IMG/VR virus record: IMGVR_UViG_3300044719_000048 | Span: 96,001-160,000 of that record | Strand: one strand, 5' to 3' | DNA from: a virus | Taxonomy: Duplodnaviria; Caudoviricetes | DNA: 64,000 nucleotides | Shown: piece by piece, positions 3,203 through 16,173 of the stretch | Numbering within the stretch: position 1 is the stretch's first letter | Layout: each line of letters begins with the position of its first letter | Position numbers and translations under genes: made by a program | Notes under the pieces: generated by a model | The model's database searches: none | What the model was told of the DNA's origin: nothing | The model's input: only the letters and a program-made list of their open reading frames with translations

Positions 3203-3730
3203 CTATAGGGCGTAACGCTCACGGATGAACCATAGAGGTCCCAGGTGGAAGACCCAACTCCAGACCTTGCGGCCGTCGTGTCCATCGTAGTCGTAAATGA
3301 CCAGGCGAGGGCGACTCCAGTTCCTGAGCCTTTTCGACAGGCGGAGGTCCCACATGCTCAGATCAAAAATCGAATCGTTCGCACGGGCTTTGGCCTCGCG
3401 GTCATCGGTAGAAGTGCCTGCACCACGCATATCCGTTACGACGATCACGAACTGGGCGTCGGTCACGATAACCGATTCGCCCATGCCTACCTTGATCGAC
3501 TCCCGCACCGTGTCGTCAACGCTGTCGGCAAGTTCGCTGATCACGTCATCGGCTTTCTTGTTGGGATGAGAATAACGAGCACCGATCCAGAATGGTGCAG
3601 TGGTGTCGATCTTGATACTGGTGCAGAGCAGGCGTTCGATGTTCAATTCGCCACGAAGATACGATTCACGGATCGAGGTCAACCGTTCGGGGCTGTTGCG
3701 TCCTGGCACGCGGATATGAGTGAGCTTCAT
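3203..3730 (-). CDS. Hypothetical protein
   Basis: 175-aa ORF coupled to folA, RBS upstream. Confidence 0.6.
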   Translation of the reverse strand: MKLTHIRVPGRNSPERLTSIRESYLRGELNIERLLCTSIKIDTTAPFWIGARYSHPNKKADDVISELADSVDDTVRESIKVGMGESVIVTDAQFVIVVTDMRGAGTSTDDREAKARANDSIFDLSMWDLRLSKRLRNWSRPRLVIYDYDGHDGRKVWSWVFHLGPLWFIRERYAL

Positions 3731-4218
3731 TTCCTCTCCTTTGATTTACTGATGTAGGTGACGAAGGTGTAGTCGACCGATGCAGAAACGGACCGCTTGC
3801 GCTCGCTGCAACGCACAGCTTCCCATTGGAGTGGATCGATCTCAGGGAAGAACGTGTCGCACTCGTAGGTATTGTGGAGGTGAGTGACGATCAACTTGTC
3901 GGCCATCGGCAAGGCTTGTCGGAAGATCTCGGCGCCACCTATAATGAAGATGTCAGAATCGTCCGCGTCCTTGATAGCCGCTTCGATAGAACCATAGAGG
4001 AAGCTACTGGTCGGATTGCGGGAAACCACTAGGTTCTTACGCATAGGCAAAGGCCTGCCAATCGACTCAAAGGTCTTGCGGCCCATGATGATCGGATGGG
4101 TGAGCGTAGTGTTCCTGAAGTGCATCATGTCCTCAGGAACGTTCCACGGCAACTTGTTCTTGAAGCCGATGCCGCGCTGCTCGTCCATCGCTACGATGAT
4201 AATGATGCTTGGTTCCAT
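3727..4218 (-). CDS. folA: Dihydrofolate reductase
   Basis: IG..NKLPW..PED, IIMGRKTFESIGRPLP.R.N, IIGGAEI, DTFFP. Confidence 0.97.
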   Translation of the reverse strand: MEPSIIIIVAMDEQRGIGFKNKLPWNVPEDMMHFRNTTLTHPIIMGRKTFESIGRPLPMRKNLVVSRNPTSSFLYGSIEAAIKDADDSDIFIIGGAEIFRQALPMADKLIVTHLHNTYECDTFFPEIDPLQWEAVRCSERKRSVSASVDYTFVTYISKSKERK

Positions 4219-4227
4219 GATAGCTCC

Positions 4228-5250
4228 TTAGACGGCGACCTGGGCTTTGATGGCCGGATGTGGATCGTAGCCGACGATCTCGAAGTCCTCGAACTTGTAG
4301 TCAAAGATCGATTCGGGCTTGCGTTTGATCACCAGCTTCGGCAGCGGTTTGGGGGCACGCGACAGCTGGAGTTCGACCTGTTCCATGTGGTTGGAGTAGA
4401 TGTGTACGTCACCTCCGGTCCAGATGAATTCGCCCGCCGCCATACCCACTTGGTGGGCGATCATGTGAGTCAGCAGCGCGTAGGAAGCGATGTTGAACGG
4501 CAAACCCAAGAAGACGTCACACGACCTCTGGTAGAGCTGGCAGTCCAGTGCGCGGCGCGGAACGCCCTGATCATCGAAACGTGCGTGTGCCAACTCGACG
4601 GCGTCTTTATCATCACCGCGTAGCGCCTCCGACCAGTCGAGACTACCTCGATAAGCAGTAGGATTCGGGCTGAGGTTGTCACGCTCAGACAACGACAGCT
4701 CGCGCGTGTAGAACTGGAACAGCGCGTGGCAAGGTGGCAGCTTCATGCGTGGAATGTCGGCCACGTTCCATGCACTGACAATTAGGCGCCTGCTGTCCGG
4801 GTTGGTCTTCAGCTGATTGACGACCTCAGCAATTTGGTCGATTGACTCATGCTCGACAGGCGTACCTTCCGTAATCAGCTGCCAGCCTTCGTTATCGCGG
4901 ACCTCGTATTGGGTACCGCTGTCTCTCACCGCAACGATGTTGCCCGGCCACGAACGCCACTGATAGCCATAGATGGGACCGAGCTCGCCATTCTCGTCTG
5001 CCCACTCGTCCCAGATTGACACGCCGTTCTGCTTTAGGTACTCGATGTTGGTCTGCCCGGACAGGAACCAAATCAGCTCATGGATAATCGACTTCAGGTG
5101 GAGCTTCTTGGTCGTGACCAGCGGAAAGCCGTCTTGCAGATTGAAGCGTGTTTGGTAGCCGAAGACCGACTTGGTGCCAGTGCCGGTGCGGTCGGCCTTG
5201 AACGTACCGTTGGACAGTACGTGACGCATGAGGTCGTGGTATTGTTTCAT
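4228..5250 (-). CDS. thyA: Thymidylate synthase, with two insertions
   Basis: [47 protein letters not shown]. Confidence 0.98.
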
Positions 5251-6754: not shown

Positions 6755-6966
6755 TCAGGCCTCTTGCAGGAATCGGGATCGAGTGTGTGCGTGCCGCACT
6801 CAGGGCAAGGAAGTCTCGACACGAATGCGACCTGAGTGCCGCTGAATTTCGTGTGCGAGACAAACGCATGGCCCTTGATGCACCGAGTCTCCACTTCAGG
6901 AAGACCTTCGCTCTCCGACCAATCCTCACTCGTCGTCTTTGGTTTTGTCACGATTGGCTTTCGCAT
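6751..6966 (-). CDS. Small zinc-ribbon-like protein
   Basis: CIKGH...CPECG. Confidence 0.5.
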   Translation of the reverse strand: MRKPIVTKPKTTSEDWSESEGLPEVETRCIKGHAFVSHTKFSGTQVAFVSRLPCPECGTHTLDPDSCKRPE

Positions 6967-7948
6967 AAGAGATCGAACGTTCCATCAGCTTGACGATCGG
7001 CTCAGGCAGCTTCTTCTTCACCATGTAGAAGGCAAAGCATTCGGCGAACAGCTCCTTGAAGTTGACCGTCGCGTAGTCTGACACGATAGGCGCCAGCTCT
7101 TTGTGGCTGATATTGCGGACCGGCCAGACCTTCGCCACCTCGTCCTTCATGTCGGCCTCGAACAAGATGTCCAAATCCTGTATCGATAAGCCGTTGACCT
7201 GTTGGATCGTGCGGATCAGCCACTTGAACGCCAGTGCGTCCTCTTCATCGAGACCGCGCTTGAAGTCAGACGGAGGTTCCTCGCCACCGATCAAGGCGTC
7301 CAGTAACTGTTGTGACTTGTCCTTCTTGATCGTGTCCACGCGAATCGACGTGTTGAACAGCTTGAGCCAAGAAGCGTTCAGCTTCTTGGCAGGCTTGCAG
7401 TAGTCGAGGTGCAGATTGTGCCCGAGCTCGTGATACCACACGTACTGATACTCGGAGGCAGGCATGATCTCGGGGCGAATCTGAATACGCTTCGGTAGCT
7501 TCTCGTTCTTCGACTTCAGAAACCTCCCTGCGAACTTCTCGCCGTTGTACGGCAGGACTTCAAAGATCATATTGTCGAGGAGGAACAGCAGATCTTGTCG
7601 CTTGAGGCGTTCGGCCACCTTGTCCATCGATTCTTTGAGGTCTGCCAGCACTTGCTTATCCGGCCGATAGAAGAAGTGCACGTCCCCGAACTTGTCGTGG
7701 GTCAGTCGCTTTCGATGCAACGTACCCACGTCGTAGCCATAGACCTTGCCGGGGTGTGGGTCAGAGCCCAAGTTCAGCACCACGTCAGAGAGGGCCACCG
7801 TCATAGTGTGGCGAAGACCCTGAACGTGGCAATCCTTTTCCAGTACAGCTTCTACCGACCTCGAGTCGGAGTCTGCCAAGGCCTTGAACAGATAGTCCTT
7901 GCCTTGGTCTTGCTTGGCGATACCATAGTCGCCTTTGCGCATCTTCAT
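6926..7948 (-). CDS. Putative zincin-type metallopeptidase
   Basis: WYHELGH (HExxH) with downstream YA...ELFAECF third-ligand pattern. Confidence 0.65.
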   Translation of the reverse strand: MKMRKGDYGIAKQDQGKDYLFKALADSDSRSVEAVLEKDCHVQGLRHTMTVALSDVVLNLGSDPHPGKVYGYDVGTLHRKRLTHDKFGDVHFFYRPDKQVLADLKESMDKVAERLKRQDLLFLLDNMIFEVLPYNGEKFAGRFLKSKNEKLPKRIQIRPEIMPASEYQYVWYHELGHNLHLDYCKPAKKLNASWLKLFNTSIRVDTIKKDKSQQLLDALIGGEEPPSDFKRGLDEEDALAFKWLIRTIQQVNGLSIQDLDILFEADMKDEVAKVWPVRNISHKELAPIVSDYATVNFKELFAECFAFYMVKKKLPEPIVKLMERSISYAKANRDKTKDDE

Positions 7949-7960
7949 TCGATACCCCTA

Positions 7961-7995
7961 AAGAAAAAGCCCAGCCCTGTTAAGGACCGGGCTTT
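7961..7995 (-). terminator. Probable intrinsic terminator
   Basis: AAAGCCC/GGGCTTT stem followed by a U-run on the minus strand. Confidence 0.55.
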
Positions 7996-8008
7996 GGTTG
8001 GCAGCTGC

Positions 8009-8929
8009 TTAGTGTGCGGCCACTTCGACTTGCACAGCGACCGGCGGCGTGGCGACTTCTGTGAAGGCGACGGTTTCCGGTTCGGTAGAGGCTTCGATTT
8101 CGGCCAGCTCCACGTCAGCGGCGGCCTCTTCAGCAGAAACGACTTGCGGCTCTGCTACGGGCGCAGTAGTCGACGTTTCCGGTGCGTAGGTGGTGAAGAT
8201 CACCTGGTACATGTGGCTTCCGTAGAAGACACACGGGTAGACGCCGAGGAACTCGTTCCAGTTCACGTGTACGGGAGCGCCCTCGATTTCGATCTCGAAC
8301 GTGAAAATCGACTTGCCACTCTGTTCCGACGACGGCGAGAACGCAGCAATCAAGGCGTCGCGCGTGATGCCCTTCTCGGAACGGATGAACAGCGAATGCT
8401 GAACCGAACGAGGGGAAGTTCCAGGCGACTGCTGATACGACGAGACGGCCTGCGCCAGATACTCGGCGTCGAGGACCGAAGGCAGGTCTGACGACGGAAT
8501 GAGCTTCACGATCGGACCTGCGTTGTCCGTGGAATCGCTGCCGTAGTCGTCTTTCTGGAGTTCTTGGCCGTCGGATTGAGTGCCGTCATCGTCACCCAGG
8601 TCTTCTCCGTCCTCGATGACCAGCTCATCTTCATCGGAGTTCAGATCGAGGGCGTCTTCGCTGTCGGAGTTGCTGATAGCCAGCAGGTTCATCAGACGGG
8701 CTTCCAGTTCCGGGTCGACCATATGGAACTTGCGCTTGTTCAGGAAGCGGTCGATGTCGCAGCTCAGAACGTTGTTGTTCTCGTCGGCATACACGACCTG
8801 TGCCGGATACTGCTTGCGCACCTTTTCGGGCAGAGCCATGTTGGTCAGGAACAGGAAGCGCGCTTCGCGGCCGTCCTCACGGACGAAGATGGAACCGGGG
8901 GTCAGGAAATCCAGATCAGCAATGTTCAT
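8009..8929 (-). CDS. Acidic hypothetical protein
   Basis: 306-aa D/E-rich ORF with its own AGTAAATA motif upstream and terminator downstream. Confidence 0.75.
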   Translation of the reverse strand: MNIADLDFLTPGSIFVREDGREARFLFLTNMALPEKVRKQYPAQVVYADENNNVLSCDIDRFLNKRKFHMVDPELEARLMNLLAISNSDSEDALDLNSDEDELVIEDGEDLGDDDGTQSDGQELQKDDYGSDSTDNAGPIVKLIPSSDLPSVLDAEYLAQAVSSYQQSPGTSPRSVQHSLFIRSEKGITRDALIAAFSPSSEQSGKSIFTFEIEIEGAPVHVNWNEFLGVYPCVFYGSHMYQVIFTTYAPETSTTAPVAEPQVVSAEEAAADVELAEIEASTEPETVAFTEVATPPVAVQVEVAAH

Positions 8930-8988: not shown

Positions 8989-9477
8989 CTAGAAAGGACC
9001 CGGCTGCGTCTGCCAGCAGGTGATACCACGTTCACGCCACATCGCAACGGTCGAATCGCGGTCTTCGATGACCAGCAGGATGCGGTCGAGCGAGTAGCCA
9101 GCCTCTTCGATCAGGCGGGGCTTGAGCACAGTGTCGTGCTCCTTCTCACTGTCGAGTGGACGCATCAGCAACTTGGACTGATCGATCTGAAAGCCGAACA
9201 GCTCTTGCAGCTGCAGGGTCGTGTACTCGCGGCAAAGCTCAGAACGGCCGGTGACGAACAAGTATTCCAGAGACTGGGTGTCTCGTACCATGTCGAGGAA
9301 CATCCCATACACGACATGCCCTGCCGGAATCGTCTTGTCCGTGTGGTACAGATTGTCGTATGTCTCGCGGTCGCCATTCAGGAAATGTGGGAGACGCTCC
9401 TCCGAATCTACGAGACACCCATCGATGTCCAAGATGATCAGGTTCTTTTGGGTTTGGGTGATCTGTACGTGGTTCAT
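8989..9477 (-). CDS. HAD-superfamily phosphatase (polynucleotide kinase 3'-phosphatase-like)
   Basis: [17 protein letters not shown]...K, IEDR...VAMWR..GITC. Confidence 0.85.
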
Positions 9478-10157
9478 TTATGGCTCAGGGTAACGAACTC
9501 GGAACGAGTTTCGGGATTGCGGAAAGCGCCGCCGACCTTGGACGTCACCGTATCGGAACAGGCGTCTTCCACGCCGCGCGTTTTCACGCACATATGTTCG
9601 GCTTCGATGATGACGGCAACGTCTTCGGTTTCCAGAATGAAGCACAGGGCGGCGTGAATCTGTGCGGTCAAGCGCTCCTGCACTTGCGGGCGGGCAGCAA
9701 AGAACTGCACGATGCGATTCATCTTCGACAAGCCCAAGACCTTGGCGCCCGGAATGTACGCCACGTGAGCCTTGCCGATGATGGGCAACAAGTGGTGCTC
9801 ACACGTCGAATTCAGCGTGATGTTGCGCTCGAGCACCATCTCGTCCACGTGCATCTTGTTCTCGATGACCGTGCACTTAGGGAACTCATCGTAGTTGAGC
9901 CCCTTGAAGACCTCGTTCATGAACATTTTCGCCACGCGCGTCGGCGTCTCGCTCAGGCTGTCGTCGAGCAAGTCGAGATGCAGTTCCTCCATTATGGCGT
10001 GCACATGGCGTTCGATACGACTCAGTCGGCCAGCATCGTACTGAGCGTCCTTTACGGAAAGAGCGAGAGACTGCGGCACCTGCAACATCGGCGTTTCGAT
10101 GCCGAGCTGCTTCAGATGCTCGTTGACCAGCTTGCCCAGTTGAGGGTCGTTCTTCAT
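9474..10157 (-). CDS. folE: GTP cyclohydrolase I
   Basis: [41 protein letters not shown]. Confidence 0.97.
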
Positions 10158-10167
10158 GTTGTTCCTT

Positions 10168-10965
10168 TCAGGCTAATGCACAGATGGTGTGCATCTGAAT
10201 AGACAGACGCAGATTGTTTTTCAGCGCGTACGCGGCTGCGTAGCGGTAGTTGGCGGCCGTCTGCTCCTGATCGACGAGCTCAGCGTCCCATATGCTGGAG
10301 ACTTCGCCTTCATAGGGCTTCCGGTAGACGGTCATTGGCGAAACCATCACGATCTTGTGACTGCGCAGCGCCCACTCAGGAATCGTGTGATGCGCCGACT
10401 CCGGATCGGCAGAGATCACGAACTTGTATGCGTGCGCCCACCACTGGACCTTCTCAGGCACTTGCGGGTACTTCTTGAGTCGCTCGTTCGCCTTTGGGCT
10501 GACGATGAACTCCAGTCGGTCGTCGCCAATCAAGCCCATGTGCTCGGCCTGCTCGAAGAACTTCGGCTGCGTGCCGTTCGTTTCCACTTGGATAGCAGAG
10601 AAATGGCACAGGGCTTTGGTGATCAGCGCCAGTACATTGGCTTGCAGCGTGGGCTCTCCGCCAGTGATGACCAAGATGTCTGAGGGGGAGTAGCCCTTGA
10701 CCCGCAGCAGGACCTCGAGCACGGTGTCGATGTTCAGAATCGAGGCCTTATCGAATTGGAACGACGTGTCGCAAAACAAGCAGTGGTCGGTCTTCGATCC
10801 GTAGTTGCATCCCGCGAGACGAAGGAAGACCGCGGGCTGTCCGGCCCGTGTTCCTTCTCCTTGCAGCGTACGGAACCAAGATGTCACGCGTAATCGATTG
10901 TCCATGAAGCGGTAGTCACGGGCACTGATATTGCGGTCTTGGTTTTGAACTTGGATGGGTATCAT
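10168..10965 (-). CDS. queE: 7-carboxy-7-deazaguanine synthase (radical SAM)
   Basis: [20 protein letters not shown]8CX2C + DT, ITGGEP, ETNG, SPK, LSIQMH; likely start MIPIQ. Confidence 0.92.
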
Positions 10966-11393
10966 GGCGCTTTCACCTTCGAGTTGAAGACCCGGTCGTT
11001 GTAGCACAACCGGGATTGCATACGAATGAAGGACTTGGGGAGCCCTTCCTCTACGTTATTTACGTAGTAGTCGTACAGCTGCTTCGTCGTCGGAATGTTG
11101 TTGTACTTGGGGATCTCTACTGAGACCTCGTTCGGCATCAGCGACTTCGGATCCGGCATACTAGTGCGCGTCCAGATGCCGGAGCCTTTTGTGTAATGCC
11201 ATCCGAGGATAGGCACACCTGCCGCGTGCAGATATGCCAGTCCGGAGACCACAACGAGAAATTTGTGCTTGCGCTTTGCTTTCTCGATGTTGTGGACTCC
11301 GATTGCGAGGTCGACGTTGCCCGAAGCCCATTTGCGGAACTCCGGTGACAGCGATGGATACCCGTAGACGTTCTTTGCTTTGAGTACCCTCAT
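10962..11393 (-). CDS. Hypothetical protein inside the deazaguanine operon
   Basis: 143-aa ORF with 4-bp overlaps on both sides. Confidence 0.7.
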   Translation of the reverse strand: MRVLKAKNVYGYPSLSPEFRKWASGNVDLAIGVHNIEKAKRKHKFLVVVSGLAYLHAAGVPILGWHYTKGSGIWTRTSMPDPKSLMPNEVSVEIPKYNNIPTTKQLYDYYVNNVEEGLPKSFIRMQSRLCYNDRVFNSKVKAP

Positions 11394-12832
11394 TTCTTCC
11401 CTTTCTTGGTTGACATGCCGTGGAATTCCTCATAGCGCATGATGGCCTTCGTCACGTTGGCCTCGGCCTTCTTGTGCTGCTCGTTGACCTTCTGCGCCGC
11501 AGTGAATAAGCCCTTGTCCTCCTTGTTCTTCCGCATGAACTCTTTCAAGGCTGGGCCGTGCTTGGTCCACGCCCTGTCGAAGCCCTTGTCCATGTCGCAA
11601 ACGAAAGCAAAAAGCATGCGGTAGAGAGGCCACAGGGCCTTGCGCGGCTGAATGGTCAGCAGCAACTCGTCCAGAGGCAGCTTGCCATTCAAATACATCT
11701 TGGTCATAGACGCAATGATCTCGGCCAATCGACGTTGCACGAACAGCGTATGGATTGCGTTGGCGTCCTGCGACATACGATAGACTTGTGCATCGCCAGC
11801 CAGATTGCAGACCGGGCAGTTGCACGCCAGCCCGAACGGAGCGGCGAGGGTCTCCAACGGACCTGCCGATACTTGGTCCTTGCGGCTGATGATCGTGCCC
11901 CTTGTCCAGAACGACAGGCTTGCCTGACTGTACGTCGAGGAGTCCGCAGTGATGAACGGCGCCGTCTCGTTCAAGGTCAGAATGTTGTAGAGCGCGATGT
12001 GCAGCGGGCTCATCGTCCCCAGAATGTGGAACCGATCATATACACCCTTGGAGCGGCACAACACATAGCACATGTTGATGACCGAGGCCGTTACCGAAGT
12101 CAACTGGTTGTCGTAGTTTGCTTGACCGATACCGCCCATAGACAGGCCGGAGCCCACCTTGTGCTTCAGCACGTAGTCGAGGAACTTGGCGCGATTCTCC
12201 AGTGTCAACCCGTGCGACACATCGTAGAGCTCGCAACCACTTCCCTTGATCTTCTTCGAGATGTACTCGTTGTTCTTCAGCATGACCTTGCACATGCGGA
12301 GGAACCAGTCGGTGCCCTGAAGGTGGCGAGGAACCGGAATGTCCATGCCGATGCCTATGTTTATCTTCTTCGCGTAGAAGTGCGAGACCTCATCGAGGTC
12401 CATGAACTCGGTCACGCCCTTCGACAGCTGGAAGCCACCTGAGTCAGACACCACATGGACCTTACCGTTGCGCCGCACGTAATCCGAAGTGGCCAGACGT
12501 TCCGGCGTGACCATCATCATGTTGTACCCGGCTTCGAGCATGAACTCAGGGGCTGTAAGCGGCGACAGATGCGTGGCCCGGTCGAACTCGAAGTCAGGAA
12601 TACCGAAGGTAGCACCGTTGCCGCGACCCACGAACACTGTCTTATCCTTGAGGTAGATCGTGTGCAGACCCTTCACTCTCTCGGACGTGTAAGGCTTCTT
12701 GGGTGTGCCGTAACGTACTCCGAGGAAGCTGTTCAGCGCCATCGAGTTGACGGCGGCCGGCATCAGAGATACGCGAGGGTTGACCGACTCTTTGTTCAGC
12801 AGCTTGTCGAGTGGAAGGCAGTCAGGTTTCAA
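11390..12832 (-). CDS. TGT-superfamily transglycosylase, probably DpdA-like (DNA 7-deazaguanine insertion)
   Basis: SDSGGFQ, MDIP, MGG, HILG, ADSST (nucleophile Asp), CNCPVC...H zinc site; preQ0 gene context. Confidence 0.85.
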   Translation of the reverse strand: MKPDCLPLDKLLNKESVNPRVSLMPAAVNSMALNSFLGVRYGTPKKPYTSERVKGLHTIYLKDKTVFVGRGNGATFGIPDFEFDRATHLSPLTAPEFMLEAGYNMMMVTPERLATSDYVRRNGKVHVVSDSGGFQLSKGVTEFMDLDEVSHFYAKKINIGIGMDIPVPRHLQGTDWFLRMCKVMLKNNEYISKKIKGSGCELYDVSHGLTLENRAKFLDYVLKHKVGSGLSMGGIGQANYDNQLTSVTASVINMCYVLCRSKGVYDRFHILGTMSPLHIALYNILTLNETAPFITADSSTYSQASLSFWTRGTIISRKDQVSAGPLETLAAPFGLACNCPVCNLAGDAQVYRMSQDANAIHTLFVQRRLAEIIASMTKMYLNGKLPLDELLLTIQPRKALWPLYRMLFAFVCDMDKGFDRAWTKHGPALKEFMRKNKEDKGLFTAAQKVNEQHKKAEANVTKAIMRYEEFHGMSTKKGKK

Positions 12833-13592
12833 AGTCAGCCTCGTTCGATGTGATGTAGTCGGGAGGCAAGGCCGGAAGGATCTCGCTCTTGCGATCTTCG
12901 TCGTAGTGGTCGCCGGACTTCATGGCGTTCACCAGCTCGCGTAGCTCTCTGGTCTGGAGTGGATCAACGTTGTATTGCTCTTGGGCGATGCCGAGCTGGC
13001 GGAAGATACCCCACCGGCGCAGGCAGACAACGCAGCGACCGCAGTTACCGGCCTCACCGGACAGGCAACTGCTGCTGTGCTTGATCTGCTGTTCCGTGAT
13101 GCCGTTCTTCAACGCCCACTCGACAGCGCGCAGCTTGTTCATTTTGGCTTCCGCCAGAGGAAAGCGAACCTGGACGTTCGACTTGAACGGAGCCAACACG
13201 TAACCGAGCGTCTCGTTCATGAGCTCTACGAACGCCCAGTTCTTGTCGGTGGCACTGTCGTGGGTTTCGCCTTGGAGTGCACCCATCCAGATTTGATCGG
13301 GCAGATACATGCAGGCAGCCGCAGTGGCCAACAGCATGTTGCGCCCCGGGATGTAGATGTTGCCGGAGGCCGACCCTTCTTTGGACTTCAGTTGGCCGTC
13401 GATGTCCACGTTCAGCCACGGCAGATCGCGCTGAATCACGTAATCAGGGAGAGCCGCGATCTCCTTGGCGGCATACTCCTGGCCGATGTTGTAGAACACG
13501 CAGGTAACGGTTGCGTCCGGGTAGTTGACCTCGGCGTAACGCTTCATGATGAGCGAGTCGAGGCCTCCGCTGTATAAGATGAGGATATTCAT
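12822..13592 (-). CDS. queC: 7-cyano-7-deazaguanine (preQ0) synthase
   Basis: LYSGGLDS PP-loop, GQ.Y...E, YIPGRN, SC...CGRCVVC. Confidence 0.93.
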   Translation of the reverse strand: MNILILYSGGLDSLIMKRYAEVNYPDATVTCVFYNIGQEYAAKEIAALPDYVIQRDLPWLNVDIDGQLKSKEGSASGNIYIPGRNMLLATAAACMYLPDQIWMGALQGETHDSATDKNWAFVELMNETLGYVLAPFKSNVQVRFPLAEAKMNKLRAVEWALKNGITEQQIKHSSSCLSGEAGNCGRCVVCLRRWGIFRQLGIAQEQYNVDPLQTRELRELVNAMKSGDHYDEDRKSEILPALPPDYITSNEADFET

Positions 13593-14126
13593 TTAGATTG
13601 GCTTGCTATTGTTAGAGGTTTGGTTCCTGAAAAGGCCGCGATCGCCTTCGACCACGTGATCGATTTCCTCGTGAGGGAAGACGATCCAGTCAGAAGTGGT
13701 CATACCTGCAATATTTACTCGACTGCGGATGGACTCATCCACGTTGTTATCGAGCACCGCAGGCACGAACTCGGCGCTTACGTGGCTCCCATAGTAGGCT
13801 GCGTGTGCCGTCAGAACCTTGGTCAGCGTGCGTCCCTGCGCCACCACGTCTTCCAGATAGACGAACACCGCTCGGTCATCGTTCGTCAGGTCATCCCACG
13901 TTGGGTGCTGCACTCGCATCGGGTGCGGCGAAGCCATAGGGAAGACCACTCCGAGAGGCAGTGCCATCTTGTAGGCTACGAGCTGGCCGAACGTCAGGCC
14001 GCCCCGGGCGATAGCGAACAGGAACAGCCTGTCGGCCTTGATCTGCTCGGCGTATTTCACTCGGAGTTGTTCAACCACGTGGTTGGCAACGTCCTTCAGT
14101 TGTTCGTAGGTGAGGTAGACTTTCAT
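13593..14126 (-). CDS. Type I phosphoribosyltransferase, Gpt/XGPRT-like
   Basis: AIARGGL, PRPP loop YLEDVVAQGRT, WIVFPHE. Confidence 0.85.
   Translation of the reverse strand: MKVYLTYEQLKDVANHVVEQLRVKYAEQIKADRLFLFAIARGGLTFGQLVAYKMALPLGVVFPMASPHPMRVQHPTWDDLTNDDRAVFVYLEDVVAQGRTLTKVLTAHAAYYGSHVSAEFVPAVLDNNVDESIRSRVNIAGMTTSDWIVFPHEEIDHVVEGDRGLFRNQTSNNSKPI
13712..13719 (-). promoter_or_regulatory. AGTAAATA motif, internal, about 120 bp before queC
   Basis: Exact octamer, co-oriented. Confidence 0.4.
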
Positions 14127-14989
14127 AGTGGGTACGTGACATTCAATCCGAAGTTGGCGGCCGGCGTGTTGTAGCTTTCCACCCAGCGCACGATCTCGTT
14201 GTAGTTCGCGAACATTGTCTCATAACCGGCCGCACTGAATTCCTTGGGGTGCTTAATCGCGAGCTCCTGCACCTTCAAGGCCTTGCACAGCGCATTCAGA
14301 GTAGCCGAATCGGACAGCTTGTCGGTCTCGACGTGAATGACGTTCGGCAAGGCGTGCACCAATCGTTTGTGAACATCGAGACGACGAAGCATACGGCGTG
14401 CGTAGTCTTCTGGCATCGCCAGCTTAGTGGTCTTGCGTGCTTCCTCCTGTTCCGGGCATGGAGCGAAGATGCCAGTGTAGTCGCAGGCAAAGTTGCTGCA
14501 CAGCCACTTGACCAGGTCCGAAGGCATGAGGTTGATGGTCACGTCGAAGCCTTTCAGCACGGCATCCATCCACAGGTCGTTGGGAGCTTCCACGTCGCCC
14601 ATGAGCGTGACGATTTGGGTCTTCACCACATAGCTGAACTCGCGGTATCGGTTCAGCAGCGTCCTCAGGTAGTAGATGTGCTGATCAGTCAACACTTCCT
14701 CGTAGTGGCATTCCACGTAGCACATGGAGTGGTGCCGCGCCACGGGCAGGAAGGAAGAACCGCTGAAGTCCTTGAAGTGCGGATGCGTGCGGAACAGGAT
14801 GGCGTGCTCTGGATCGAACGGCTTCACAGCTTCGTACCCGAACTTGTATCCGTGGAACGACCATCCGTGGAAGTACTCACCCAAGTGCTTCTCGCTGCCA
14901 ATGGTCAGCGTGCGGCCCAAGGCCGTGTTTATCGCGTCTTGCAGGGACTTGCTTCCCGTACGCTGCATGCTCAGGATATGGACCTTCAT
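14123..14989 (-). CDS. Putative PAPS-dependent sulfotransferase (Stf0-like)
   Basis: N-terminal ILSMQRTGSKSL 5'-PSB loop followed by GEYF; C-terminal YETMFANYNEI resembles the Stf0-like tail; start MKVHIL follows the APS-kinase stop. Confidence 0.7.
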   Translation of the reverse strand: MKVHILSMQRTGSKSLQDAINTALGRTLTIGSEKHLGEYFHGWSFHGYKFGYEAVKPFDPEHAILFRTHPHFKDFSGSSFLPVARHHSMCYVECHYEEVLTDQHIYYLRTLLNRYREFSYVVKTQIVTLMGDVEAPNDLWMDAVLKGFDVTINLMPSDLVKWLCSNFACDYTGIFAPCPEQEEARKTTKLAMPEDYARRMLRRLDVHKRLVHALPNVIHVETDKLSDSATLNALCKALKVQELAIKHPKEFSAAGYETMFANYNEIVRWVESYNTPAANFGLNVTYPL

Positions 14990-14990
14990 G

Positions 14991-15668
14991 TCAGAACTCC
15001 AGAATGAATTTGTTTCCGTCCCACGACGGGAAGCCTTTGGCACAGACGTTGTACTTCTCGACGCAGTACTCTACCGTCATCGAAGGCGTCATGTGGCCTC
15101 GGATGTCGAACGAAGAGGCCAGCCGTTCTTCTCTAGTAGCGGCGTCGATGATGCGCCACTTGAGGTCCGAACCATTGTGCAGAGTGTTGAACCGAATGTG
15201 GTAGGTCCTCATCTGATCGGTGACGGCCTGGACAACGATTTTGGCGGCTTCCTCAAAACGCGGTTCGTCCAGATACTTGTTGAACTGCAGATCGGGAGTA
15301 CCGACGTACGGCTGGAACAGCTTGTTGGTGTCCTCGAAACGGCCTTCCTGAATGGTATTCATGAACACCGTGAAGACCTTGTTCTCTCCGTCGGCCTCTG
15401 CCGCACTGAAGTAGGCAACGCGAGTGTCGTTCGTCGGATTCACGAAGTCCACGACTGTCCACTGATTCTTGACAGTCAGCGCTGCGATATGTCCCAGTGC
15501 GTAAGCCTGCTTGATGCGGTCCACTTCCGTGAAGCCCAGATGGGAAGTCACCGTGGACCGCGCCCAGTCGGCGTTGATGTGTACAGCGTTCAGAAGTGCG
15601 GCCACCTTGCGAGCCAGCGTGGTCTTGCCCGAACCCGGAAGGCCGATGATAGTGATGATCTTACGCAT
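14991..15668 (-). CDS. cysC: Adenylyl-sulfate (APS) kinase-like protein with C-terminal extension
   Basis: IGLPGSGKTTLA, NAD..R, LGFTEVDR..Q, VDFVNP, GRFEDTNKLF. Confidence 0.8.
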   Translation of the reverse strand: MRKIITIIGLPGSGKTTLARKVAALLNAVHINADWARSTVTSHLGFTEVDRIKQAYALGHIAALTVKNQWTVVDFVNPTNDTRVAYFSAAEADGENKVFTVFMNTIQEGRFEDTNKLFQPYVGTPDLQFNKYLDEPRFEEAAKIVVQAVTDQMRTYHIRFNTLHNGSDLKWRIIDAATREERLASSFDIRGHMTPSMTVEYCVEKYNVCAKGFPSWDGNKFILEF

Positions 15669-16118
15669 TTATGCTCCCATGTAGATTGCGCTGTTAGATT
15701 CGTGCTCGGAGACTTCAACCGACACGAGCGTGACGCGGTCTCCGTAACCGGCGTCCTTCAACCACTGCTCAGCCACCTGGTAGGTGTACTCGGCGAATTT
15801 CTCGCACCCGCCTGCAGGAAGTTCTACCAACCGCAGGACGCCTAGGCGATGACCTTCACGGAACCACTCGATCTGCGGGTCGTCGGAAGCCACGATGGTA
15901 GTGTGATCGAACGTATCGGCCAGAATCTGCTTGAGGGACTTGACGCCGCCGAAGTCGACCACCCAGTTGCGCGCGTCCAAATCCTCTGCCGAAAACACGA
16001 ACCTGAAAGCCAACGCGTATCCGTGCAGAAGACGGCAGTGCGAGTCAGCCCGCCACTGGCGGAAGGCGCAACTGAAACCAGTGGAATGCGGGTAGTGTTT
16101 TGTGCTCTGATAGGACAT
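15669..16118 (-). CDS. queD: 6-carboxy-5,6,7,8-tetrahydropterin synthase
   Basis: FRQWRADSHCRLLHGY, WVVDFGG.K, FDHT, GCEKFA, EHESNSAIY. Confidence 0.93.
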   Translation of the reverse strand: MSYQSTKHYPHSTGFSCAFRQWRADSHCRLLHGYALAFRFVFSAEDLDARNWVVDFGGVKSLKQILADTFDHTTIVASDDPQIEWFREGHRLGVLRLVELPAGGCEKFAEYTYQVAEQWLKDAGYGDRVTLVSVEVSEHESNSAIYMGA

Positions 16119-16137
16119 GTCGATCTCCGGTGTAGAC

Positions 16138-16173
16138 AAAAAAGTGCCCGGCAGATCGATTCAATCTACCGGG
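16138..16173 (-). terminator. Hairpin plus U6 in the queD leader (terminator or attenuator)
   Basis: CCCGGTAGAT/ATCTGCCGGG stem followed by CACTTTTTT. Confidence 0.6.

Follow-up and report, generated by a model that had tools for sequence, protein, structure and literature searches.

A putative two-gene sulfation branch in a phage operon for 7-deazaguanine DNA modification

What are a homologue of adenosine 5'-phosphosulfate (APS) kinase and a sulfotransferase-like protein doing inside a phage operon for 7-deazaguanine synthesis? The question is raised by a locus in a 64,000-nucleotide stretch of viral DNA (hereafter the window), which comprises bases 96001-160000 of the 189.5-kb IMG/VR virus record IMGVR_UViG_3300044719_000048, from an uncultured phage and estimated to be 80% complete. 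In the open reading frame (ORF) listing of the window, ten co-directional ORFs, abutting or overlapping, span 8989-16139 on the minus strand and encode QueD, the kinase, the sulfotransferase-like protein, a phosphoribosyltransferase (PRTase), QueC, an enzyme resembling tRNA-guanine transglycosylase (TGT) and DpdA, a 143-amino-acid (aa) orphan, QueE, FolE and a HAD phosphatase. Phage 7-deazaguanine DNA modification by FolE, QueD, QueE and QueC together with DpdA has been described (Hutinet et al. 2019, PMC6884629; Cui et al. 2023, PMC10516641), whereas the tailoring enzymes described for those systems, QueF, ArcS, Gat-QueC and DpdL/M/N, are absent here, and the text of Cui et al. (2023) contains neither kinase, phosphoribosyl nor sulfotransferase. 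The original prediction, made from the letters of this locus, was that the kinase-sulfotransferase pair takes the tailoring role, with 3'-phosphoadenosine 5'-phosphosulfate (PAPS) as the sulfate donor. We lean, with some reserve, towards seeing in the operon a phage system for 7-deazaguanine modification of DNA that has a two-gene sulfation branch; PAPS-dependent sulfation as such we regard as highly probable. To our knowledge, the described phage 7-deazaguanines (dPreQ0, dADG, dG+, dPreQ1 with methyl and formyl forms, dDG and dCDG) have neutral, carboxylated or cationic small side chains, and we know of none among them that uses sulfur or PAPS.

Linkage of the pair to que/dpdA genes in relatives had been set beforehand as a test of this proposal, and within the que-linked clade the pair was always found inside a que/dpdA operon. 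This arrangement occurs in at least 8 other uncultured phages, that is, at at least 9 loci counting the window. The order QueD, kinase, sulfotransferase-like protein, PRTase, QueC, TGT-like enzyme, orphan, QueE and FolE is repeated in L002, L004/L012 (a complete 218.9-kb genome with terminal repeats), L011, L018 and L021. Among the shorter contigs, L013 and L014 (which ends in the PRTase gene) show the order kinase, sulfotransferase-like protein, PRTase, QueC and TGT-like enzyme as far as they reach, and L016 (1.2 kb) covers QueD, the kinase and only the start of the sulfotransferase-like gene. Neighbouring kinase and sulfotransferase-like genes are found in the window, L002, L004, L011, L013, L014, L016, L018 and L021, as well as in L005 and L020, where distant sulfotransferase-like members (25-27% identity) also adjoin an APS-kinase homologue; in all, a kinase homologue lies near a sulfotransferase-like gene at at least 10 loci. 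Identity of the relatives to the window ranges from 29 to 50% for the sulfotransferase-like protein and from 40 to 83% for the TGT-like enzyme, and the operon order is conserved far beyond chance. A megablast search of the window operon against 50,697 phage records found nothing.

The position of the pair can be compared with that of other genes in related operons. Achromobacter phage Motura carries QueD, QueC, an AsnB-like amidotransferase, a TGT-like enzyme, QueE and FolE, with no kinase, sulfotransferase or PRTase. Motura-type systems thus share with the window the four genes of the pathway to 7-cyano-7-deazaguanine (preQ0) and a TGT-superfamily enzyme in one operon, and in Motura the operon lies in the corresponding part of the phage backbone, close to genes for primase, peptidase and thymidylate synthase. 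The survey of jumbo phages in which the Motura system is described makes no mention of sulfation. In Burkholderia phage BCSR5 (L032, MW460245.1, 4132-7982), the stretch from QueD to the TGT-like enzyme holds four genes, all annotated as hypothetical, for an AAA_28 kinase, a PP-loop protein, a PIG-L-type deacetylase and a group-1 glycosyltransferase, so that a sugar-bearing deazaguanine is possible in this phage. L021 adds a homologue of the BCSR5 PIG-L protein (31% identity) before its kinase. The sulfation pair thus stands in a slot that relatives fill with other tailoring genes. The absence of QueF, ArcS and Gat-QueC, noted in the original prediction for the window, extends to the whole 189.5-kb record, in which QueF, ArcS-like enzymes and an Asn-synthase-type amidotransferase were not found. 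Tblastn with the proteins of relatives, a search of limited sensitivity, likewise detected no glycosyltransferase, sugar nucleotidyltransferase, Sulfotransfer_2, 5-hydroxymethyldeoxyuridine (5-hmdU) kinase, PIG-L, CysD, CysN or AsnB in the record.

The sulfotransferase-like gene (14123..14989, minus strand) encodes a 288-aa protein. Its AlphaFold 2 (AF2) model (predicted local distance difference test score, pLDDT, 86; predicted template modelling score, pTM, 0.85) adopts a sulfotransferase alpha/beta fold. The mycobacterial trehalose 2-sulfotransferase Stf0 (1tex) was the top match both by Foldseek (E 1.1e-4) and by an exhaustive aligner (VIA; Z 10.4, root-mean-square deviation (rmsd) 4.2, 197 aa), six more sulfotransferases came next by VIA, and the ESM Atlas neighbours of the model were Sulfotransfer_3, Stf0 and NodH clusters (TM 0.56-0.66). 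Stf0 and NodH are the best structural matches, yet the identity is 12-14%, and unlike them the phage protein has no Pfam sulfotransferase match and sits in a viral DNA-modification operon. Sugar hydroxyls are the acceptors of the enzymes closest to it in structure, namely Stf0, NodH and heparan sulfate 2-O-sulfotransferase.

The loop after strand 1 reads S-[LM]-Q-R-T-G-S-K-S-L, with R10, S13 and K14 invariant in 33 homologues, which bears out the proposal that the motif MQRTGSKSL is a PAPS 5'-phosphosulfate-binding-type loop; the corresponding loop of Stf0-type enzymes we take to be R-[ST]-G-S. E38, K123 and S165 are also invariant in this alignment. Distant members of the family have the canonical 3'-phosphate-binding motif R-x-D-x-x-x-W-x-x-S. 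Sulfotransfer_4 was weakly matched by 8 of the 33 homologues (best E 0.012), and a search of the family profile against PDB sequences found no sulfotransferase. Fold, motif and context together make it highly likely that the 288-aa protein is a sulfotransferase, proposed to depend on PAPS, from a rare and unnamed Stf0/NodH-like family without described members. The family forms 16 clusters in 5.8 billion proteins and 26 representatives in 1.84 billion, with only 2 loci in IMG/VR and 5 in a JGI metagenome scan. One distant member (30% identity), at L019:6760-8864, follows an AAA_28/AAA_18-type kinase, not an APS kinase; that kinase gene lies directly after a Tad6 anti-Thoeris gene (7.1e-40), and a HAD_PNKP gene lies about 1.6 kb upstream.

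The kinase gene (14991..15668, minus strand) was originally named from its sequence, and both sequence and predicted structure agree with the name. The protein scores 39.3 bits against PF01583 (8.3e-10; cut-off 21.1; profile positions 4-112 of 152), and its PDB sequence matches are APS kinases plus one marginal row for adenylate kinase 9, the best being Aeropyrum pernix APE1195 (2yvu, 2.2e-10). The five best structural matches of its AF2 model (pLDDT 82) are all APS kinases (Z 18.5-15.8), including CysC of M. tuberculosis (4rfv, Z 18.5, rmsd 1.8 Å, 135 aa) and 2yvu (Z 18.1); gluconate kinase reaches Z 15.5 and shikimate kinases about 13. The protein keeps the Walker A sequence GLPGSGKTT together with LGFTEVDR and FVNP, so that fold, Walker A, LGF[ST]xxDR and F[IV]xP are common to it and the kinase domain of CysC and PAPS synthase. 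These elements belong to a core of residues 1-153. Unlike CysC, the phage kinase has an added C-terminal domain of about 70 residues, all beta (residues 154-225; window 14991-15206), with conserved positions RxNT...WRII...E.L...F...V.K.NV. As judged from sequence and model, the protein appears to be an APS-kinase-family enzyme, not a textbook CysC, which most likely makes PAPS, the sulfate donor. We also considered the kinase and the HAD protein as a split polynucleotide kinase-phosphatase, a reading rejected because the fold is that of APS kinases and because of the CysD/CysN context described below.

That context is found in L018 (5970-8828), where CysD (NF003587/PRK05253.1, 241.7 bits against a cut-off of 195) and a CysN-type G domain are encoded between the kinase and the sulfotransferase-like gene. 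The G domain is a stand-alone protein of 170 aa whose best families are CysN and which lacks the CysN C-terminal domains. Together, the L018 kinase, CysD and CysN-like protein would form a complete sulfate-activation set and a predicted minimal phage PAPS pathway. The arrangement resembles NodPQ-NodH of rhizobial Nod-factor sulfation, in which PAPS supply is encoded beside the transferase. Neither CysD nor ATP sulfurylase was found in the 189.5-kb record of the window or in the complete relative G002, and therefore most of these phages must take APS from the host.

These observations bear on a different route, in which the PRTase, host kinases and a host reductase would make a deazaguanine deoxynucleoside triphosphate (dNTP) for the polymerase, with the kinase and the 288-aa protein serving as nucleotide kinases or activators. 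A PRTase does yield a nucleotide, APS kinases phosphorylate a nucleotide 3'-hydroxyl, a HAD nucleotide phosphatase is present, and the 288-aa model resembles nucleoside monophosphate and nucleoside kinases, VIA giving P-loop nucleotide kinases Z 8-8.8. However, these kinases align over about 150-165 aa and the sulfotransferases over 180-210 aa, the QRTGSKS loop differs from the Walker A motif (GxxxxGK[ST]), and CysD and CysN are encoded beside the gene in L018. A TGT-like base exchanger is moreover present and highly conserved. Guanylate kinase, the large subunit of ribonucleotide reductase and MazG were not found in the record, itself 80% complete; a phage-encoded pre-replicative dNTP route was rejected on this ground, though host enzymes could serve. 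We consider the nucleotide route very improbable.

The kinase also occurs outside deazaguanine operons. ORF238 of Ralstonia phage phiRSL1 matches the window kinase from end to end at 48% identity, the extra C-terminal domain included, and is encoded in the same region of the backbone. The surrounding cassette (L009, NC_010811.2 161848-180498, ORF238-ORF230) encodes three annotated glucosyltransferases, two sugar nucleotidyltransferases, a Sulfotransfer_2 protein (PF03567, 3.9e-21), a 5-hmdU DNA kinase helical-domain protein (2.5e-39) and a thymidylate-synthase-family enzyme, and looks, from these families, like a thymidine hypermodification system with sugar and sulfate steps. Compared with the window, the kinase is alike, whereas the sulfotransferase is of a different family and the cassette concerns thymidine, not guanine. 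One kinase lineage thus accompanies two unrelated sulfotransferases in two hypermodification cassettes, which supports both PAPS synthesis and a DNA-modification theme. We found no paper on the phiRSL1 cassette.

The base exchange itself is assigned to the 480-aa TGT/DpdA-like protein (11390..12832, minus strand). Sixteen homologues keep D130-S-G-G-F-Q135, GLALGG (G233-G234), D297 and C337-x-C339-xx-C342...H361 invariant. With a Motura protein whose annotation reads tRNA guanine transglycosylase it shares 30% identity, and its Vibrio phage homologues are annotated as TGT too. By ESM Atlas features (222 of 256) it scored 0.96 to viral clusters in which 22-30% of members carry PF01702, and 0.90 to a PF23859 DpdA cluster. 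Profile searches were negative: no Pfam TGT/DpdA model matched the protein at an E-value of 0.01 or lower, a search of the 189.5-kb record with PF01702 came back empty, and an hhalign comparison of the family profile with E. coli Tgt failed (probability 0.9%). From the motifs, homologues and features it is very probably a divergent DpdA-like enzyme, of a separate subfamily. Thus, the names given at the outset from motifs to this protein and to the sulfotransferase-like one have both stood, on fold, motif and context.

If sulfation does occur, what is the acceptor? The PRTase gene (13593..14126, minus strand) encodes a Gpt-like type I enzyme (PF00156, 1.3e-6, 28.3 bits, cut-off 26.3) that retains RGG, ED..A.GRT and DWIVFPHE, corresponding to the pyrophosphate loop, the 5-phosphoribosyl pyrophosphate (PRPP) loop and the stacking Trp. 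In the alignment with E. coli Gpt, R41-G-G matches R37-G-G, E92-D93 matches D88-D89, G98-R-T100 matches G94-G-T96 and W147 matches W134. At the position of Gpt D92 the phage protein has Ala96, and Ala was found here in 63 of 63 homologues (P0061-P0123). D92 presumably corresponds to D137 of human HGPRT, a residue in contact with N7 of the purine. Because the Ala is invariant and a 7-deazapurine has no N7, the PRTase probably takes 7-deazaguanine; most likely, it phosphoribosylates a deazaguanine base. The same loss of the N7-contacting Asp disfavoured salvage of DpdA-released guanine as its function. The product is probably a 7-deazaguanine riboside, which could supply the hydroxyl that preQ0 lacks, a lack already pointed out in the original prediction. 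This Ala-type family is widespread in uncultured phage deazaguanine clusters and has no described members.

The analysis shows the identities of the genes, their folds and motifs and their conserved linkage; what we infer is the following scheme, covering PAPS synthesis, sulfotransfer, the acceptor and entry of the product into DNA. FolE, QueD, QueE and QueC would convert GTP to a 7-deazaguanine base, which may be CDG (7-carboxy-7-deazaguanine), ADG (7-amido-7-deazaguanine) or preQ0, and the 480-aa enzyme, probably with the 143-aa protein, would swap guanine in DNA for this base. The kinase would turn host APS into PAPS, from which the Stf0/NodH-like protein would transfer sulfate to a hydroxyl of a molecule of the deazaguanine pathway. 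As acceptor we would guess first at a hydroxyl on the ribose of the PRTase product, the riboside or ribotide that this Ala-type enzyme would make from the deazaguanine base and PRPP, because CDG, ADG and preQ0 have no hydroxyl, there is no QueF, the PRTase is the only sugar-adding enzyme found and the structural relatives of the transferase sulfate sugars. Given sulfation, it is reasonably likely that the acceptor lies within the deazaguanine pathway. The HAD phosphatase (8989..9477, minus strand; PNKP 3'-phosphatase type, HAD_PNKP PF25109, 9.2e-17) would expose the 5'-hydroxyl or clear the by-product 3'-phosphoadenosine 5'-phosphate (PAP). It may be a nucleotide phosphatase or a PAP 3'-phosphatase: a HAD_PNKP gene lies near the ORF238 kinase in phiRSL1, Motura has neither HAD nor kinase, and BCSR5 has a HAD gene beside FolE without an APS kinase, so that a dedicated PAP 3'-phosphatase is kept as one of two options only.

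Bacterial secondary metabolism offers a lead for such a scheme. In toyocamycin and sangivamycin biosynthesis, ToyD, ToyB, ToyC and ToyM make preQ0, ToyH is a purine PRTase and ToyI a HAD phosphatase, and the outcome is a 7-deazapurine nucleoside. In the clusters for the 5'-O-sulfamoyl nucleosides nucleocidin and ascamycin, a PRTase occurs together with genes for sulfate activation and a sulfotransferase whose target is the ribose 5'-hydroxyl. Neither kind of cluster has a TGT-like enzyme.

In a version that follows the original prediction, the sulfotransferase acts directly on the deazaguanine side chain, for example on the carboxamide nitrogen of ADG, either ahead of its insertion by DpdA or afterwards, to give a sulfated nucleobase in virion DNA, with the PRTase serving a separate purpose. 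The residence of the pair inside que/dpdA operons at at least 9 loci, the other tailoring enzymes in the same slot in Motura, BCSR5 and L035, and the lack of any other tailoring gene found in the record all suit this version, and the PRTase, which occurs without sulfation genes, need not supply the acceptor. However, CDG, ADG and preQ0 have no hydroxyl, there is no QueF to make the amine of preQ1, and the enzymes most similar in structure are O-sulfotransferases, with sugars or phenols as their substrates; we know of no precedent for N-sulfation of a carboxamide. Direct sulfation of the base therefore seems improbable to us.

Several observations weigh against a sulfation branch of the deazaguanine pathway. 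The kinase reached 31.8 bits against the NCBIfam apsK model, whose cut-off is 138.7, and thus missed the equivalog level. In all 11 aligned phage kinases the DGD of CysC is replaced by NAD (with the second Asp kept), and the canonical lid is missing, with a short GRFEDTNKL segment in its place; NAD, this lid and the extra domain, which ORF238 shares and the short L020 kinase lacks, are otherwise common to the 11. In the sulfotransferase-like protein, the window and all close homologues have Pro (Pro156) where the Arg that binds the 3'-phosphate would stand, with Ser165 invariant; the invariant K123 might stand in for the Arg. Tblastn in the 50,697 sequenced phage records found no homologue of this protein, nor any of the PRTase (two PRTases searched). 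The Ala-type PRTase adjoins QueC in two T4-like contigs (L034:9001-9483 and L035:9001-9540) without a kinase or sulfotransferase-like gene, in L035 after a weak Pfam TGT match and before a methyltransferase; it was for this reason rejected as a part of the sulfation module and assigned to the deazaguanine core, so that it may be by coincidence that it adjoins the sulfotransferase-like gene. Finally, an N9-riboside cannot be a TGT substrate, and a sulfated riboside would then be a side product, not a DNA base. As alternatives to a side product we propose a ribose on the side chain or sulfate placed directly on the base. That the sulfate ends up in DNA is doubtful. Slightly less likely still is virion DNA with a sulfated 7-deazaguanine derivative. 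In its most coherent form, which would employ all the genes otherwise unexplained, the PRTase would phosphoribosylate the C7 side chain (for example at the carboxamide nitrogen of ADG) and not N9, HAD would take off the 5-phosphate, the Stf0-like protein would sulfate the ribose with PAPS supplied by the phage kinase, and the TGT-like enzyme would insert the bulky base.

The remaining objections concern the link to deazaguanine, and fit the idea that the pair is a movable accessory whose target is a protein, glycan or small molecule unrelated to deazaguanine, the slot being a hot spot for early-expressed accessory genes. In phiRSL1 the same kinase is found with Sulfotransfer_2 and no que genes, so that it is not specific to deazaguanine and the link is loosened. 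The sulfotransferase-like gene evolves faster than any other in the operon (48% identity between L002 and the window, against 83% for the TGT-like enzyme). The contigs of the distant members have no que gene in view; the neighbours there are an ATP-grasp gene, the anti-Thoeris gene Tad6, or Asn-synthase-like and 2-oxoglutarate oxygenase genes. However, these contigs are short (1.6-9.7 kb), and que genes may lie just outside them. The que-linked clade keeps the pair between queD and the PRTase gene down to 29% identity, and the phiRSL1 neighbours are again DNA-hypermodification genes, which makes the theme DNA modification and not a random slot. We judge an unrelated target to be improbable, and retain a sulfation branch of the deazaguanine pathway as the preferred reading.

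The remaining genes of the operon are as follows, all on the minus strand. QueD (6-carboxytetrahydropterin synthase; 15669..16139) is the first gene (PF01242, 1.3e-17; PHROG QueD-like, 3.6e-43). The QueC gene (12822..13592) encodes a QueC-like PP-loop enzyme, a 7-cyano- or 7-amido-7-deazaguanine synthase (PF06508, 1.5e-13; PHROG QueC-like, 1.2e-29), whose translation has the SGGLDS PP-loop and a C-terminal Cys cluster. QueE (10168..11007) is a radical SAM 7-carboxy-7-deazaguanine synthase (PF04055, 1.2e-8; PHROG QueE-like, 9.4e-36), and FolE (9474..10157) is a GTP cyclohydrolase I (PF01227, 2.9e-62; NCBIfam NF006824, 4e-87, 291 bits against a cut-off of 202). The coordinates, order and junctions first given for the ten ORFs were all reproduced, the ATG of QueD at 16118 being an alternative start. 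The kinase starts immediately after the QueD stop, and a single base separates the kinase stop from the ATG of the sulfotransferase-like gene (14989), with GGAG 9 nt upstream of that ATG. The sulfotransferase-like and PRTase genes overlap by 4 nt, the PRTase and QueC genes abut, and QueC overlaps the TGT-like gene by 11 nt. The TGT-like gene overlaps the orphan by 4 nt and the orphan overlaps QueE by 46 nt; a gap of 10 nt precedes FolE, which overlaps HAD by 4 nt. The HAD gene is within the operon in L011 and L021.

Two strong minus-strand hairpins flank the gene set, and none of like strength lies within it. The hairpin just upstream of queD (16147..16173; 12-pair stem with 7 G-C pairs and a T-rich tail) is terminator-like and would close the preceding transcription unit; the other (7966..7995; 13-pair stem with 7 G-C pairs and a T-rich tail) is likewise terminator-like and lies downstream of the operon and a following 306-aa gene.

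The 143-aa orphan (10962..11393, minus strand) has, like the sulfotransferase-like and TGT-like proteins, no match in Pfam, PHROG or NCBIfam. It is kept in L002, L004, L011, L018 and L021 at 31-77% identity, always after the TGT-like gene, and may serve the transglycosylase as an accessory subunit. In L035 the TGT-like gene is followed by two small genes without annotation (134 and 163 aa), and in L034 by one of 441 aa, likewise unannotated.

Directly downstream of HAD, at 6926-8929, lie conserved genes of 340 and 306 aa without a Pfam match, the 306-aa gene preceding the terminator at 7995-7966. Judged by gene order and size alone, they may correspond to the phiRSL1 and Motura genes that are annotated as peptidase and hypothetical. 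Further away, at 3727-5250, a 340-aa thymidylate synthase (PF00303, 3e-121) adjoins dihydrofolate reductase; because its PF00303 match falls in two stretches, the enzyme carries an insertion. The two genes suggest ordinary thymidine in this phage, unlike phiRSL1.

Our paper searches turned up no account of sulfation genes in the DNA-modification clusters of phages, those for deazaguanine included, and a sulfated deazaguanine derivative from a phage may represent a chemistry for which we found no paper on DNA. Since phiRSL1 is cultured, the question of phage DNA sulfation can be tested in a cultured phage. If the modification in DNA is real, DNA would for the first time be known to carry a natural sulfate ester, and likewise a purine that bears a sugar. 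The product could be a DNA base with sulfate on it or a 7-deazapurine nucleoside sulfated in the course of infection, and either would affect how such DNA is seen by restriction enzymes, glycosylase-type defences and sequencing chemistries. Altogether, a conserved phage PAPS supply and a new sulfotransferase family within one operon point to unexplored chemistry in these phages.

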